Assembly (NCBI GenBank): GCA_037379345.1
Contig: CM074511.1
Location: 30,758,862-30,822,861, forward strand
Direction: 5' to 3'
DNA length: 64,000 bases
Source: Perna viridis
Lineage: Eukaryota
The notes beneath the pieces are model-generated. The model was not told where the DNA came from. It did not search any database and saw nothing but the letters and a program-made list of their open reading frames with translations. Both the position numbers and the translations under genes were made by a program. Position 1 is the stretch's first letter, and the number at the start of each line of letters is the position of its first letter. Below are positions 52,870-59,100 of the stretch, piece by piece.

Positions 52870-55607
52870 AATGTCTTTAGGAGTCGTTTTTAGAACAGTT
52901 TCAATAGTGTCCACAAAACTATTACCTTAAATACATAATTGCTCATTCATATTACTTGAAATATGATCAGCTGAATCAATCGGAGGGCATTTTTTGCAGA
53001 TAGTGAATTTCAGATTATGATTTCTACTGAATGCCAACGTAGACCGCTATATCCTATCCAAGCAACTTGATAGCCATTTCTGTCTAATCCAATATAGGAT
53101 CCAGTTGGCCTTTGTTTAACATGTTCTGAGGCCCTATGAATAATAGACGAACCTAACATCCAAATGTCACCTGCATACCCTGAAATATTTTAATAATTCC
53201 TACGAATATAACGTTGAAAACATGTGGAGGACCATCGTCCTAAACGTTCGATATCATCCCCCCCCATTTTCCGATCAAAAAGGCTGAAGTAGCCGCATCA
53301 AATCTAAAAAAATGAGTATCAAAATTTTTAATTTCAACACAGAACGTAAAACGGTGTAAACTTGATAATGTGTAATAGGTTTGCCATTTAAGTAGCAAAA
53401 AAAGTGGACCGTCATTTCTTCGCTTTAGTTTTATAATTTCAATGAAAAATTCAACAGGATCTACAAGCATTTTTAATTTTTTTTTTTAAACTAATGTTGT
53501 GGATCTACCCTCTAATCAGTTTTTGAAAATTTTATACGTATACAGAGACACTCATTTTTGTCAAATATTGCGTCAGAATATTTTATAGTGTTTTTGTCTC
53601 CACATGTTGGCGTGATTGCAATTTCACCTACCCTTACAAAGGCATAAAATGCAGGACAAAATGCAGCCCTAAACAAAATACTTTCATAACTAGATGAACA
53701 TATATACTTTAAAACAGACACTAATGTCAATAATATGTCCTCAGTGGTTAATTTTCTCGTATCATGCCTCTTATGGATTTTATCAAAACCATCTTTTTGA
53801 TAATGAAACTATTTGTTACATCAATATATCCCTCAACTTTAATTTGGAAACTAATTCCTGAAATATATGATCTTACTGTTGACGGAGCATAATCTTTAAT
53901 TGATTAAAAAACAATAAGCTGAATTAATTGATCTAATGTAAGTGGCCATGAAAGTGGTAATCCATACTTCAATCTAAATTCATTGAACAATTTAACTGCA
54001 TTATCATACAATTTCTTTGAGTCCTCAACTGAAGAAGCATTTACTAATTTACTTCAATTTCAAAAGATCTAAGAAATCTAGAGGTACCTTCTTCGGAAAA
54101 TCTACTGCTTGTGAAGCTAGGTCTCTGAACTTCTGTATCTGTCCACTAGACAAAGCATCAGCAATTTTATCGCTTGTAGTGTACAAATGTTCAGCCTTAA
54201 ACTGAAAATTGTACTCTAATGTCCAAAGAACAATTGGGCTCAAAATAGACATAAGCCTAAACGATTTTGAAGTCTTCGTATTTGAAATGGACACAACTGC
54301 TTAATTATCACAATGAAATAAAAAATAGAAAATATATCTTCCCACAAATAAATAGCCATGGCAATTGGAATAATTTCAAGATACGTAATATCAGCCAGCA
54401 TTTCATTGGGCCAACTGGATGGCCACCTTAAAACTGCCCATTAACCATCTAGATAAGCTGCACGATTTACCACCTGCGCTATCAGTTTAGTTTCAATCCA
54501 AATTTAAAACCATCTAGTGAAATATTTGCATTATATCTATCTGGGCAGTTGTAAACTTCTCTTGTTCAATTATTTTTATTGCAGAATGTCCTAGAGACCA
54601 AATATTAAACTGATCATTATTTAGATCTGAAATTTCTTAAATTAATATCAATCAGAAATTTGTCTTGCATGGATTTTTCCTGAATTGATAGGTTTCTTTT
54701 GTTTTGAAAATGCATCAGATCTGTTATATCCAAATTGATTTACAACTTGTTGCTTGAAACCAGTATTAATAAATCTGATGCAATTAAAAGCAGAATGAAT
54801 CTTTACATTTAATGCATATATGCATGTAAAGGAAATTACGTCTAACACATATCCCTTTAAAATTGTAATCATAACATATCTTTGGACTATTGCTTTGTAG
54901 ATCATGTTGTTTAGTAGTTATAAACCTTAGCCACAACTGAATACCTATTTCCGACCACTTTTTGGTATGATTACGTGATACATGTAATCTGAATCGTTGA
55001 CCATATGTATACCACTGATCTTTTGAAGCATCTTTTGCAGCTTTTCTCATTGTACCCATATATGAACGCAGTTCAATAGCTTTTGTTTCATGTTTTATCA
55101 ACAAAATTTGAACGTAAGCAATGAATGCATCAGTCCAAGCAGCAATACCATCAAAATCATTAATTTTTTTCAACTTTATGCTTCAGCCACTCATTTTCCA
55201 CCATTAATTGATAAAACATTTTGGTTTTCATGGGGATTGTGAAAATTGCTTTTATGTAACAAAACGAGGTCAACGCACTCAAACTTCCATATATTTTTCT
55301 TTTGCAGCATTACTGACAAAAATATCTACTTCATTGAACTGTGGAACCAATTCAGGTTCATCAAAATTAGCTACATTAACCTCACCTAAAGGAACTTGCA
55401 TTTCCTGGTTCACAGGTTCTCCCTGCCTATCAGCTGCTGCAATCTTGGGTTGAAACTTGGATTGAACTGGTTCAGCTTCATTTTAAATCTGACCCCGTCT
55501 ACGCCTTGGTTGCCTATGGACTGGATTGTGCCTCGTCCCCTACCTCTCGGCATACTGCAATCTGCTAATTGTACAAAAGCATTTGCATTACCATCATTAA
55601 ATTGATT
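52870..55607 (-). mobile_element. Ngaro-like (DIRS order) tyrosine-recombinase retrotransposon, degraded
   Basis: gag-like ORF1 WTDAFIAY..WYTY.QRFR..LWL with Cys/His finger. RNase H FHCDN.AVVSI..KTSKS..IADALS. YR FYAFVRVGEI, IKFSKTD, HFFRFDAAT (HSFRIGAAT), GKW. Terminal SGNH-like ORF IWMLGSSIIHRA..WIGYSGLRW. RT core largely deleted. Confidence 0.85.
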
Positions 55608-55620
55608 ACTTAAGGCAAGT

Positions 55621-56126
55621 GACCCGTGCAGGTCCGGGTGTCAAATTATAGGCCTGCAGCATGTCGTAAAAGGCGACTAATTAGTGCTCAGAACCCTAGG
55701 CGGGGGCTAGCGCGCTTTGCCAACAGAGCAACTCAGTTGTGTTCCCCAGGTGGTGGAATGGGGTACACCTGGCGTGTTACATGCTGGGGTTGTCAAGCTA
55801 TAATACGGAAAACCTGACCGCAAACCATAGTGGTGCATGGTGTTGGGAAAGATGCCACGTTCCTCGCATGTTAAACAATCCTACTGTGGTATTCTGCCGG
55901 AGTAGGAACCATAGGGCTCCGCCACAGGAGGCTAAATTGCCCGACCCTACCCACCTCTCCCTATTTCCAGTGGCAATCAAAATTTCTCGACCCCATTGTC
56001 CTTGTGTCCCGTCCCATTTTTCATTTCATCATCATTTTATGTTCATTGTATCATTCACGTGAAGTGCAACGCCTGGATATAGCTGAAATATTGCTGCTCG
56101 AGCGAACAAAACAAGCAAGCAAACAA
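55621..56126 (+). mobile_element. Full-length SINE-like retroposon with 13 bp TSD
   Basis: TSD ACTTAAGGCAAGT (55608-55620) / ACTTACGGCAAGT (56127-56139). (CAAR)n tail. Paralog at 373-869. Confidence 0.85.
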
Positions 56127-59100
56127 ACTTACGGCAAGTAAACTAAATTGTTTGATTAAATTCGTATTGAATAAGATTGAGCTCAATGTGTATTATGTAC
56201 AATGAGATTTTATTAAATGTATAATATTTTAATTTGCATATTTGTACAATATATATGAAAATTGTTTGATGTTGATTTAATTGAATTATTATTTATAGAC
56301 TCAAGCGATATACACAGTATAATAATCGAACGAAACTCTGATATTTATGTATTTGTAAAGTTGAGGAATTTATGCATGTATAATTATATCAAATGTAATA
56401 GTCTCATTTAAGTAATGATTTTGCATATTCTTCCTTTCGTTATCATTACTAGTGTAAATATAAATGTAACGAAGCTTAAGTTCTATGTACTTATCTGCTT
56501 AATACAGCTACTAAACTGCATAGTGTTCTTTTACACTTTTAAGTTCAACAAATTCAGTTAAATTATTTTAAAACTATATTACTACTGAAATATACAAACT
56601 TGATGATATACAAAAATTGTATATTGAAATTATCAATTGCTCATTTTTCACAAATATTTCATTTAACAAATTGAAATAAAGTATCAATTACCGAAATGAT
56701 ATCATTAATTTACACTATTGAAATTACTTTGCAATAAAATCAAATAAATTTATATAAATAGAAGCTAATGAAAGGGAGGTAATAAATACAAATTTAGCAC
56801 TACATGCTAAGCATTATAATACATTGCATCTCTATTTGAAGTTATGAAATAACCAATAAATGTATGATTGTCATTGACAAAGAAAATTCACATGCGAATC
56901 TTACGTGCACTTAATTATTCTAAGGAATAAATATCTTGTATATTTGCCGAACTAAGACATTACATGTGTAACTTAAGTACCTTGTATTTCAACTGAAAGC
57001 GGGAAAAGTATATGCCTTTGCACGGAGTTAAAAGCGCGTAATCCATTATACCGTTTGAAATTCTTTTGATTGTCGCTTAGGTATTTTAAATATTTCAACT
57101 AAATGATAACATATAAAAGATAACAAATAGTACTAATGCAGTAAAATAATTTAAATTATTTAAATTTAGTTAACTCTGTCATTATTCCAACAAATGAAAT
57201 TCTTTCCAAATATAGCACAAAATAAACGAAATTCTTAACAAACGCTAGGGGTTCCCTCACCCGGAATATTCATCTGGATACGTCATACATGAACGTGCAT
57301 AAGGTAAATGAAAACGCGTTAATAGATGTGGCTAGAGCACTTTGTATAAGCTGTAAAACGTTTTTTTCTCTTTTATAGTTGCACAGTTCTCGAGGTCTAG
57401 AAAAAAGTAGTTTTTTTTAGATGGAGTGTCAATGTAGTTTTATTTACGTTTTATATTCTTGCATATTGTGACGACAGTAACTAACATATGAATAATTACA
57501 TCATAACAAAATTGCGGCTCCCACCACTTCATTAAATATTTCCTCTTTTGAAATGGGTAAATTTGAATAATGAATTCCAAACCAAAGTTATTGTTATTTT
57601 TTCTCTGTCAAAATAATAAAGTCATAACAGAAAATCAACGTCCAAATAATTTCCAAAGATCTTCTTAAATTAATGTTTATATTTAGGTGAATTTTTCTAC
57701 TAATAATAACTGCCGTCAACGTACTTGTACATTTATCAATATACAATATCATAACCAAAAACAAATCGAATGTTGTTTCTACAAAAAGATAACGTGAGAA
57801 ACAATCATATGATCTGAAGGTGTGCTCCAATCGTTTACAGCTTTAAATGAATATTTTATAAGTTCAGTCGTTTTATTTTTATTTTTGGTTGTACCAAAAG
57901 ATTCACACAACATATTTTCGTCGATGTTTTACCTGTATTAACTGGTTACAATCATATCATTGCACCTTTCTTTTGGCGAGGCAGATGATTTAATATTACT
58001 ATATGTACATTTTTAACACAATTGCGGAAATGAAATTAAATGTGCATGGTTCCTTCAATTGATCTTCTGACTGGTTCCTGCAGGTAGCAACTCCGCACTG
58101 TGGCTGCCTAAAAACACATCAAAGTCTGTGATCATTGTCAAATCAAACTGTTGTTATCAGTGGTTAACTTTCTGAAGTTATTCCCACCAATCTCTCCTAT
58201 AAAATGAAAAGTGAGTAAATAGCTGTCATCTTTGATAATAAGTTACATATAGGAAAATAATATGTGGCTGGTTAATGTGGTGCAGATGTTGATGGTCATA
58301 ACGTTCTTTTACAAAAATCTATGAGCAAAAAAAAAACTTACAACATAAATACAGCTTTTATACACACCAATAACTTCCAGAAAATCAACTTGTTTCAGAT
58401 TATTTATCTGATCCCCACTACAAAACGTCAGATAGAGATGTATCGCAACATGTAGAAGCAACAATGTCAACATGATCTGTGTTGAAAAATGACAAATTAA
58501 GTAAAAGTAATTGTCGGCCAATAAAATAAGAGAGAAATTTTTTTCGTAATAACTGTAGTGTTTTCTATATGCTGCATATACATGTACCACTTCATATCAA
58601 ATTGTAAATTTTGTGGTACATGGTTTATATCCTTCTGTTGGGTGTTTTTTATTTCCTTCCAGAAATTTTCCTGATGTTTACTTATTTCAAACCAGCAATT
58701 ATATATTTTTATACCGAAGGTTTCGATGTTGACAATTGAAAGTGTGAATACGATGTTTTGGGAAGAGCATTTTGATGACGAGTCATAAAAACGCGTTTGT
58801 TTGATTTTCTAAGTTTTATACAGAAGGTTTCGATGTTGACCATTGAAAATGTGAATACGATGTTTCCGGAAAAATTTTCTGACGACGAAAAACCAGGTTT
58901 CATGTTTTGTTTATCAGCTGTTTATTCTAAATGTAGTTATTCCCTTCTATTTTATTATGAAAACACTGTTTATAAAGGAAGAAAAATCTTAAAAATATTG
59001 ACCTTAAAAACGCGTTTGGGTTTTAAAATTAAGATCATTTGAGTAAGTGAAAAAGCTATTAGCTGATTCATTAGAGGTGGTGTGTGTCGGCAGTTTTCTT

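Follow-up and report, generated by a model that had tools for sequence, protein, structure and literature searches.

Within the 64,000-nt stretch of the Perna viridis genome analysed here (the window), a 506-bp repeat at 55621..56126 begins with a putative RNA pseudoknot rather than a tRNA-like head, which raises two questions: what kind of element is this, and what does the fold do? The repeat (all of its features lie on the forward strand) is bounded by a 13-bp target-site duplication, with the 5' copy at 55608..55620 and the 3' copy, carrying one mismatch to the former, at 56127..56139, and the 5' end that an earlier note had fixed by this duplication is thereby upheld. Stem 1 of the pseudoknot consists of ACCCG (55622..55626) and CGGGT (55635..55639). 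By direct reading of the window sequence, the segment enclosed by these strands is TGCAGGTC (55627-55634) and its partner is GGCCTGCA (55651-55658); in the covariation alignment described below, stem 2 occupies the 7 nt at 55628..55634 and the positions 55651..55657, and the conserved loop-1 U (55627..55627) is most likely unpaired. Loop 3 (55640..55650) and a junction (55658..55662) complete the knot region, which is followed by a hairpin (55663-55677) and TAA. The hairpin and UAA together (55663..55680) are near-invariant, an invariance that is partly set by the search pattern. Both stems, the loop pairing, and the hairpin with its TAA lie where the earlier note had placed them, but stem 2 has seven pairs instead of the eight counted there, the eighth not being conserved. 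The hairpin drawn there as GTCGT-aaaa-GGCGAC is present in a different layout, with 4 bp and a 7-nt, possibly T-loop-like loop, or a U-G pair plus 5 nt.

In intact copies, an additional 7-bp stem (P3) and an internal loop lie beneath the hairpin, and loop 3 ends in an AGAAT that is invariant in intact homologues. In the window copy this linker is mutated, and a deletion of 10 nt between 55661 and 55662 has removed the 5' strand of P3 and part of the internal loop, leaving the 3' strand (55682..55688) orphaned; because of these two losses, P3 and the internal loop had escaped the earlier note. The window copy is thus damaged and probably neither functional nor active. Its body contains a decayed Nin-domain-like 16-mer (55866..55881), which matches Lsa_Nin_1 at 15 of 16 positions by eye, and its 3' tail (56060..56126), a probable LINE recognition tail, comprises a stem-loop and CAAA-type repeats. 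A second, 5'-truncated copy of the same SINE is located at ~369-869 of the window and retains the linker, P3, and the hairpin, the first strands of the knot being gone. The broken frames adjoining the insertion on the minus strand (53512-55182) resemble, by eye, the remnant of a tyrosine-recombinase (DIRS-type) retroelement, and a Pfam search of these frames gave nothing significant.

The family to which the window element belongs is abundant: exact matches to a 17-mer of the head number 8,448 genome-wide, compared with 0 for the reversed control, and the median divergence from the majority sequence is 5% over 70 copies with head and tail, the window copy diverging by ~9%. Target duplications were identified for 50 of the 70 copies, and the element starts 6 nt before the loop-1 U, the knot junction, in 37 of these 50, with the remaining starts at 5 nt (5 copies), 7 nt (4), 4 nt (2), and 8 nt (2); 30 of the 70 loci had been selected because they resemble the window head, a choice biased towards its first letters. 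Among copies chosen otherwise, 46 of 98 tail-reaching matches begin inside the first 10 nt. Three further families from animals share this offset of −6 (A in 60% of 35, G in 13/13, and G in 6/7), which is not clear-cut in a fourth (n = 7). The +1 base is variable (G or A, and C in the scallop alignment) and is a purine in four families. The ORFs of the element are short chance frames only. Contigs from four runs presumed to be of RNA extend upstream of the head, and such contigs show neither starts nor strand. SINE heads are strongly clustered around the LINE copies L353-L376, with ~50 over 212 kb, many of them nested in one another, compared with 2 in the whole 64-kb window.

Judged by its sequence features, the element is better filed as an LP-SINE than as the bipartite LINE-derived element proposed in the earlier note. 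LP-SINEs share a ~70-bp 5' end with Nimb-17_LMi, I-3_DR, and RTE-9_CPB (Matetovici et al. 2016, PMC4758252) and, like the window family, have target-site duplications, a tandem-repeat tail and, in some LP families, a Nin fragment. The family has a Nimb-17-type head (by eye), the duplications noted above, a CAAA-type tail, and no ORF, and in the scallop ‘Nimb-17 homology’ block (suppl. Fig. S2 of PMC4758252) the C-run, the AGAAT-type linker, the hairpin, and the knot match the window head by eye. The A/B-box head of tRNA- or 5S-derived SINEs is absent: no tRNA gene, no B box within two mismatches in the first 180 nt, and no meaningful Rfam match was found. The earlier statements that Pol III boxes are not evident and that a LINE-type 5' module takes the place of a tRNA or 5S head therefore agree with these results, the same head being present on two LINEs (L170 and L178). 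Bipartite non-autonomous LINEs, which have been reported for RTE, Ingi, Vingi, and R2 (Kojima 2018, PMC5786205), likewise combine a LINE-type 5' end with a LINE-type tail and have no small-RNA head, but no single parent with both ends was found for the window element among the LINEs sampled, and its body, which contains the Nin-like 16-mer, looks SINE-derived.

In L170 and L178, the motif is located at the 5' end and is followed by an ORF whose homologue is ORF1 of a young LINE in this genome (L355 699-6780, G000:C8:23537000-23546000, with kin L353-L376), the copies of which are ~99% alike. The young LINE encodes ORF1 (491 aa, stop to stop) and ORF2 (1247 aa, with endonuclease, RT, and RNase H), and this domain layout points to an I-group/Nimb-like element. 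Past the motif, the 5' UTRs of L355 and L170 can be aligned with each other (blastn E 3e-8). The L355 family itself starts with a sequence that can be parsed as an HDV-type nested double pseudoknot (7+8+3 bp, without a clear P4); Rfam gave no match for this LINE end, which is a predicted HDV-like ribozyme. Because homologous LINE 5' UTRs bear either the knot (L170 and L178) or the HDV-like fold (L355), the two modules appear to be interchangeable ways to make a 5' end.

A protein search for the partner LINE yielded 150 matches, and the 24 regions fetched represent one family or its close kin, all without the knot head. A pattern for other head-bearing families in the genome recovered four mutated SINE copies. 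The SINE tail is weakly similar to that of L355 (21 of 2000 shuffles were as good), and the SINE body has no match to the LINEs compared. An autonomous LINE carrying both SINE ends, as anticipated in the earlier note, was thus not found in the one LINE family sampled or in the head-pattern search of the genome, and only the 5' half of that expectation, a LINE-type module on L170 and L178, was borne out. In L168 and L177, the motif continues into a sequence which we take to be an RTE 5' UTR. In L100 and L109, it directly precedes a tRNA-like head that has both an A and a B box. The module is 5'-most in every retroelement where it was seen, and in pectinid MESC SINEs (PMC4758252) it likewise precedes an A/B-box tRNA head. 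A direct fusion ahead of an A/B-box tRNA-like head was also observed in a further animal locus, L127.

Comparative analysis argues that the head fold is real and conserved at the RNA level. Dinucleotide shuffling of the 40-nt head (3000 shuffles) never produced an H-type knot with 5+7 bp or more and no more than one G-U. The nested MFE fold does not stand out (z −0.99), as is to be expected when the folding program does not handle pseudoknots. Twenty-eight chosen loci were parsed and 21 stretches were then aligned by sequence alone, L191, L043, L113, and the first L076 copy having been dropped as redundant and L049, L100, L129, and L173 as unparsed. In this hand-picked set, which favours intact knots, 90.4% of stem 2 is paired and double-sided changes occur at all seven pairs. 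Neither the paired share nor the covariation score was matched by any of 500 shuffles, the count of double-sided pairs being equalled by 28 of them, and slid registers of stem 2 are only 20-54% paired. In stem 1, 82 of 84 cells are paired against a mean of 70.2 on partner swaps (0/20000), with few pair types, and P3 totals 86 bp against 58 (0/5000), with at least 4 bp in 14 of the 21 sequences and fewer in seven. When the window family is taken together with six viral copies, 48 of 49 stem-2 cells are paired against a mean of 30.9 on partner swap (1/5040 permutations). A blind parse, in which stem 1 was placed ignoring stem 2, picked another hairpin in 4 of 20 sequences, three of them viral, and gave the weaker result of 109 paired cells in 140 (34/49 for the window family and the viruses, 20/5040), which is still beyond the control. 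The covariation proposed as a check in the earlier note is thus present in both stems of the knot. The mollusc variant TGAAGG/CCTTCA named there was not met in a mollusc context; other compensatory variants were. Over 128 genome copies, which are not independent, pair 3 of stem 2 is A-U in 116, G-C in 4, G-U in 4, A-C in 1, and other in 3, both changes being CpG-type transitions.

The first loop nucleotide is U in 20 of the 21 sequences and faces A in 8, C in 5, U in 4, G in 2, and a gap in 1; it is most likely an unpaired 1-nt loop rather than an eighth pair of stem 2, which was rejected since covariation is absent. Pairing of the UAA with the linker was rejected on the same ground. In every one of the 21 aligned sequences, loop 1 has a single nucleotide and loop 2 has 0-1 nt; only 8-9 nt separate the strands of stem 1, and among the parsed loci stem 1 ranges from 3 to 8 bp and loop 3 from 7 to 23 nt. 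About 20 letters are invariant across the aligned sequences, those of the hairpin being imposed by the search pattern, which fixes them, and variation in the hairpin loop is restricted to its third and fourth positions. A T-loop is a 5-nt turn closed by a trans U-A pair, with a 2-nt bulge, and the pattern of the hairpin loop is compatible with this consensus.

The spread of the motif was assessed with an 18-letter hairpin pattern, which matched 9 viral stretches, at least 122 metagenome stretches, and 19 stretches in prokaryote assemblies. About half of the last resemble animal repeats and probably represent host contamination, and about half consist of the hairpin letters alone and were treated as chance. 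Animal SINE or LINE ends within bacterial genome assemblies (L167, L168, L169, L170, L171, L173, L177, L178, and L179) are probably host contamination or misassembly. An AGAAT-like word (at most one mismatch) lies 10-45 nt upstream in 128 of 142 metagenome and prokaryote hairpin matches, a loose test that has no control. Many homologues are decayed or 5'-truncated repeat copies in which the knot is not parseable. A looser viral pattern returned at least 120 stretches, and among the 121 matches listed the whole motif occurs only in the already known L031 contig; another loosened pattern (49 stretches) yielded one new match, L406/L431, and four further ones added no true match. Rfam gave nothing meaningful for six viral loci, nor for the window or an intact copy, the last two having no match at E≤10. 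Tandem double copies of the motif were observed in a viral 3' UTR (L031) and in animal repeats (L076 and L377).

Seven of the first nine viral matches contain the knot; the other two (L035 and L039, which are identical) were rejected as chance occurrences of the hairpin letters. Five RNA viruses with Pfam-supported proteins bear the fold, in sense orientation and 3' of the last ORF. The upstream ORF encodes an alphatetra-type capsid in L032, a toti-like RdRp in L034, a noda-type capsid in L036, and a tombus-like RdRp in L038, and the held-out match L406/L431 has RdRP_3 and an S-domain capsid (tombus-like), with an imperfect knot in L431. Two tandem copies lie behind an ORF without a Pfam name in L031. 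In the viral set without L431, the linker is 25-119 nt past the stop codon (25-42 nt in three of the RNA viruses) and the hairpin is 27-119 nt from the contig end. The motif lies 92 nt past the stop in L038, ending 27 nt from the contig end, and more than 200 nt past the stop in L431, ending ~14 nt from the contig end. The letters of stem 2 differ from virus to virus, with pairing kept. A 212-kb DNA-virus contig (L033) also contains an intact motif at 1455-1520, which lies between two genes in AT-rich sequence, ~150 nt ahead of an ORF, and no target duplication flanks it. On the minus strand of L031 (255-1601; also L181), a 792-aa open frame has an SDD word ahead of a D-x-S-x-x-D word, which by eye suggests a permuted RdRp; the frame has no match in Pfam, PHROGs, or PDB.

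Taken together, the element is of a known type, its fold is uncatalogued, and the spread of that fold is unexpected. The fold is undescribed in the literature searched and may be in print elsewhere, for instance in subscription journals, Repbase, Dfam, or preprint supplements. The word ‘pseudoknot’ occurs 0 times in the main text of PMC4758252, in which the LP head was proposed as a ‘LINE promoter’ with experiments pending; that source treats the head as a putative promoter only, whereas a covarying fold and viral copies are described here. The earlier proposal of a functional and possibly uncatalogued 5' RNA motif is accordingly supported for the family, by covariation and by the lack of an Rfam entry, and probably does not hold for the damaged window copy. 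It had also set the pairing order apart from the HDV double pseudoknot, and the 8-9 nt between the stem-1 strands and the lack of an Rfam match concur.

The value of the fold appears to lie in RNA, because RNA viruses have no DNA promoter and the stem letters swap freely. Of the three roles suggested in the earlier note, that of a DNA promoter leaves the RNA-virus copies unexplained; processing, or recognition by a protein at the RNA level, remain. The explanation that we favour, at a probability of about 0.4, is that the first ~78 nt act as a blocker of a host 5'-to-3' exonuclease, trimming by which would leave the exact 5' end of the element. SINE copies would be transcribed within host Pol II transcripts, and Xrn1 or Xrn2 would degrade a decapped or cut transcript and halt at the foot of stem 1, perhaps through docking of the 3' hairpin back on the knot. 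A LINE reverse transcriptase would then bind the 3' tail and copy the trimmed RNA, giving rise to the full-length insertions with target duplications that are observed (the partner itself was not found). The corresponding product in viruses would be a short 3' fragment.

An exonuclease block was chosen because it needs no conserved cut site, tolerates variation in the lengths of stem 1 and loop 3, explains the replacement by a ribozyme in a homologous LINE, and matches the halt of Xrn1 at the base of P1 in class 3 xrRNAs (PMC12397905). In its favour, the start is fixed while the +1 base, the length of stem 1, and the length of loop 3 vary. The class 3 xrRNAs of plant viruses, like the knot head, are compact pseudoknots of 7-9 bp in viral 3' UTRs, their stop at the base of P1 corresponds to the element start, and both may use a T-loop. 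They consist, however, of P1 and P2 with a long apical loop that contains L2A, the PK strand, and an L2B T-loop (PMC12397905), whereas the knot head has a loop 1 of 1 nt and a loop 2 of 0-1 nt in 21/21 sequences and a hairpin 3' of the knot, and occurs in animal retroelements. The three-way junction and double pseudoknot of class 1 and 2 xrRNAs are also absent: there is no junction, and the six viral loci have no Rfam match. An H-type knot with a 1-nt loop 1 alone forms no ring around the 5' end, which counts against a block. Such a ring is the defining trait of known xrRNAs, and the docking that might close one here is conjecture. Also against it, ~20 invariant letters resemble a catalytic or binding site more than a topological block, a +1 purine in four families would fit a transcription start too, and the L431 knot is imperfect and P3 falls below 4 bp in 7 of 21 sequences. 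Such failures of topology, here and for the HDV-like class, lower the case for membership of a class but not for working like one.

The strongest of the alternatives, though itself unlikely, is that the fold serves as a binding site for a conserved host factor or polymerase (the ribosome, an initiation or elongation factor, or an RT/RdRp), perhaps by tRNA-elbow mimicry of the T-loop-like hairpin; binding would aid cap-independent translation or RNP packaging, with SINEs riding along. The invariant loop and flanks would be expected of such a site, and the restriction of loop variation to positions three and four is compatible with a U-A closed T-loop. The position of the motif also agrees: in L170, L178, and the DNA-virus contig L033 it precedes an ORF, and it is at the extreme 3' end in L038 and L431, where the fragment protected by a block would be tiny and a terminal replication or translation signal therefore fits better. 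On the other hand, ORF-less SINEs still keep compensatory variants (G-C at pair 3 in 4/128, weak and CpG-type), the polymerases and capsids of the viruses are unrelated, and the start fixed at 6 nt is unexplained by binding unless a promoter is added.

A reading that we regard as doubtful is that the fold is a self-cleaving ribozyme of a new class, which would cut immediately 5' of stem 1 and release the element from a read-through transcript. HDV-like ribozymes reportedly free R2, L1Tc, and RTE elements from such transcripts. The knot occupies the same place as the HDV-like fold in a homologous LINE 5' UTR, the 5' end is precise, many nucleotides are invariant, and ribozymes occur in the UTRs of linear toti- and tombus-like viruses (PMC13725137). 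However, the putative cut site has no conserved nucleotide and, because stem 1 and loop 3 vary in length, has no rigid position. Cleavage within the 3' UTR of a viral genome would remove its replication end, and the helix order matches no known class. HDV-like ribozymes at LINE 5' ends (R2, L1Tc Pr77, and RTE; PMC6765202, PMC5786205) share the position and probably the job of the knot head, but form a nested double pseudoknot (P1-P2-P3-P3'-P1'...P2'), whereas the knot head is an H-type knot plus a separate hairpin, with stem 1 free in length. In the pistol ribozyme, the loop of a hairpin forms a pseudoknot, followed by an A-rich linker. The knot head resembles this layout in both respects, but has no P2 between the linker and the 3' strand of the pseudoknot and no GU cleavage junction.

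An internal Pol II promoter starting at +1, the ‘LINE promoter’ idea of 2016 with the RNA fold as a second function or by-product, is improbable as the main role. It would agree with the 5'-terminal position and the +1 purine in four families, and L1Tc Pr77 is both promoter and ribozyme (PMC4758252). A promoter may also be a second function beside an RNA role. However, RNA viruses have no DNA promoter, stem-2 letters interchange freely while pairing holds, and the distance from the start to the invariant blocks varies by ~15 nt between families. It is very improbable that the copies in viruses arose as chimeras of assembly or by neutral capture of SINE RNA from the host, with the fold mattering in retroelements only, for although the viral contigs are mostly metagenomic assemblies and host SINE RNA is abundant, the copies have virus-specific stem-2 letters that still pair, are always in sense orientation after the last ORF, and have no SINE body or tail downstream (by eye), two separate contigs (L032 and L037) represent one and the same virus, and the tandem copies of L031 differ by a compensatory change (by eye).

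Alongside the preferred exonuclease block, a broader proposal that covers processing of either kind stands at slightly better than even odds on the present sequence comparisons: the ~80-nt module would represent a new class of xrRNA or a new class of ribozyme, traded among LINEs, SINEs, unrelated RNA viruses, and a large DNA virus, which gives promoterless retroelements their 5' end from host read-through transcripts and is interchangeable with the HDV ribozyme. To our knowledge, the LINE 5' processing modules known so far are ribozymes. The xrRNAs treated in PMC12397905 are all viral. If true, the use of one fold by RNA viruses and animal retroelements alike would settle what the LP head does, a question raised in 2016, and how LP-SINEs can be transcribed when they have no Pol III head. 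It would also add a class to the short list of nuclease blocks or ribozymes, and would mean that a functional RNA has been exchanged between genomes and viruses.
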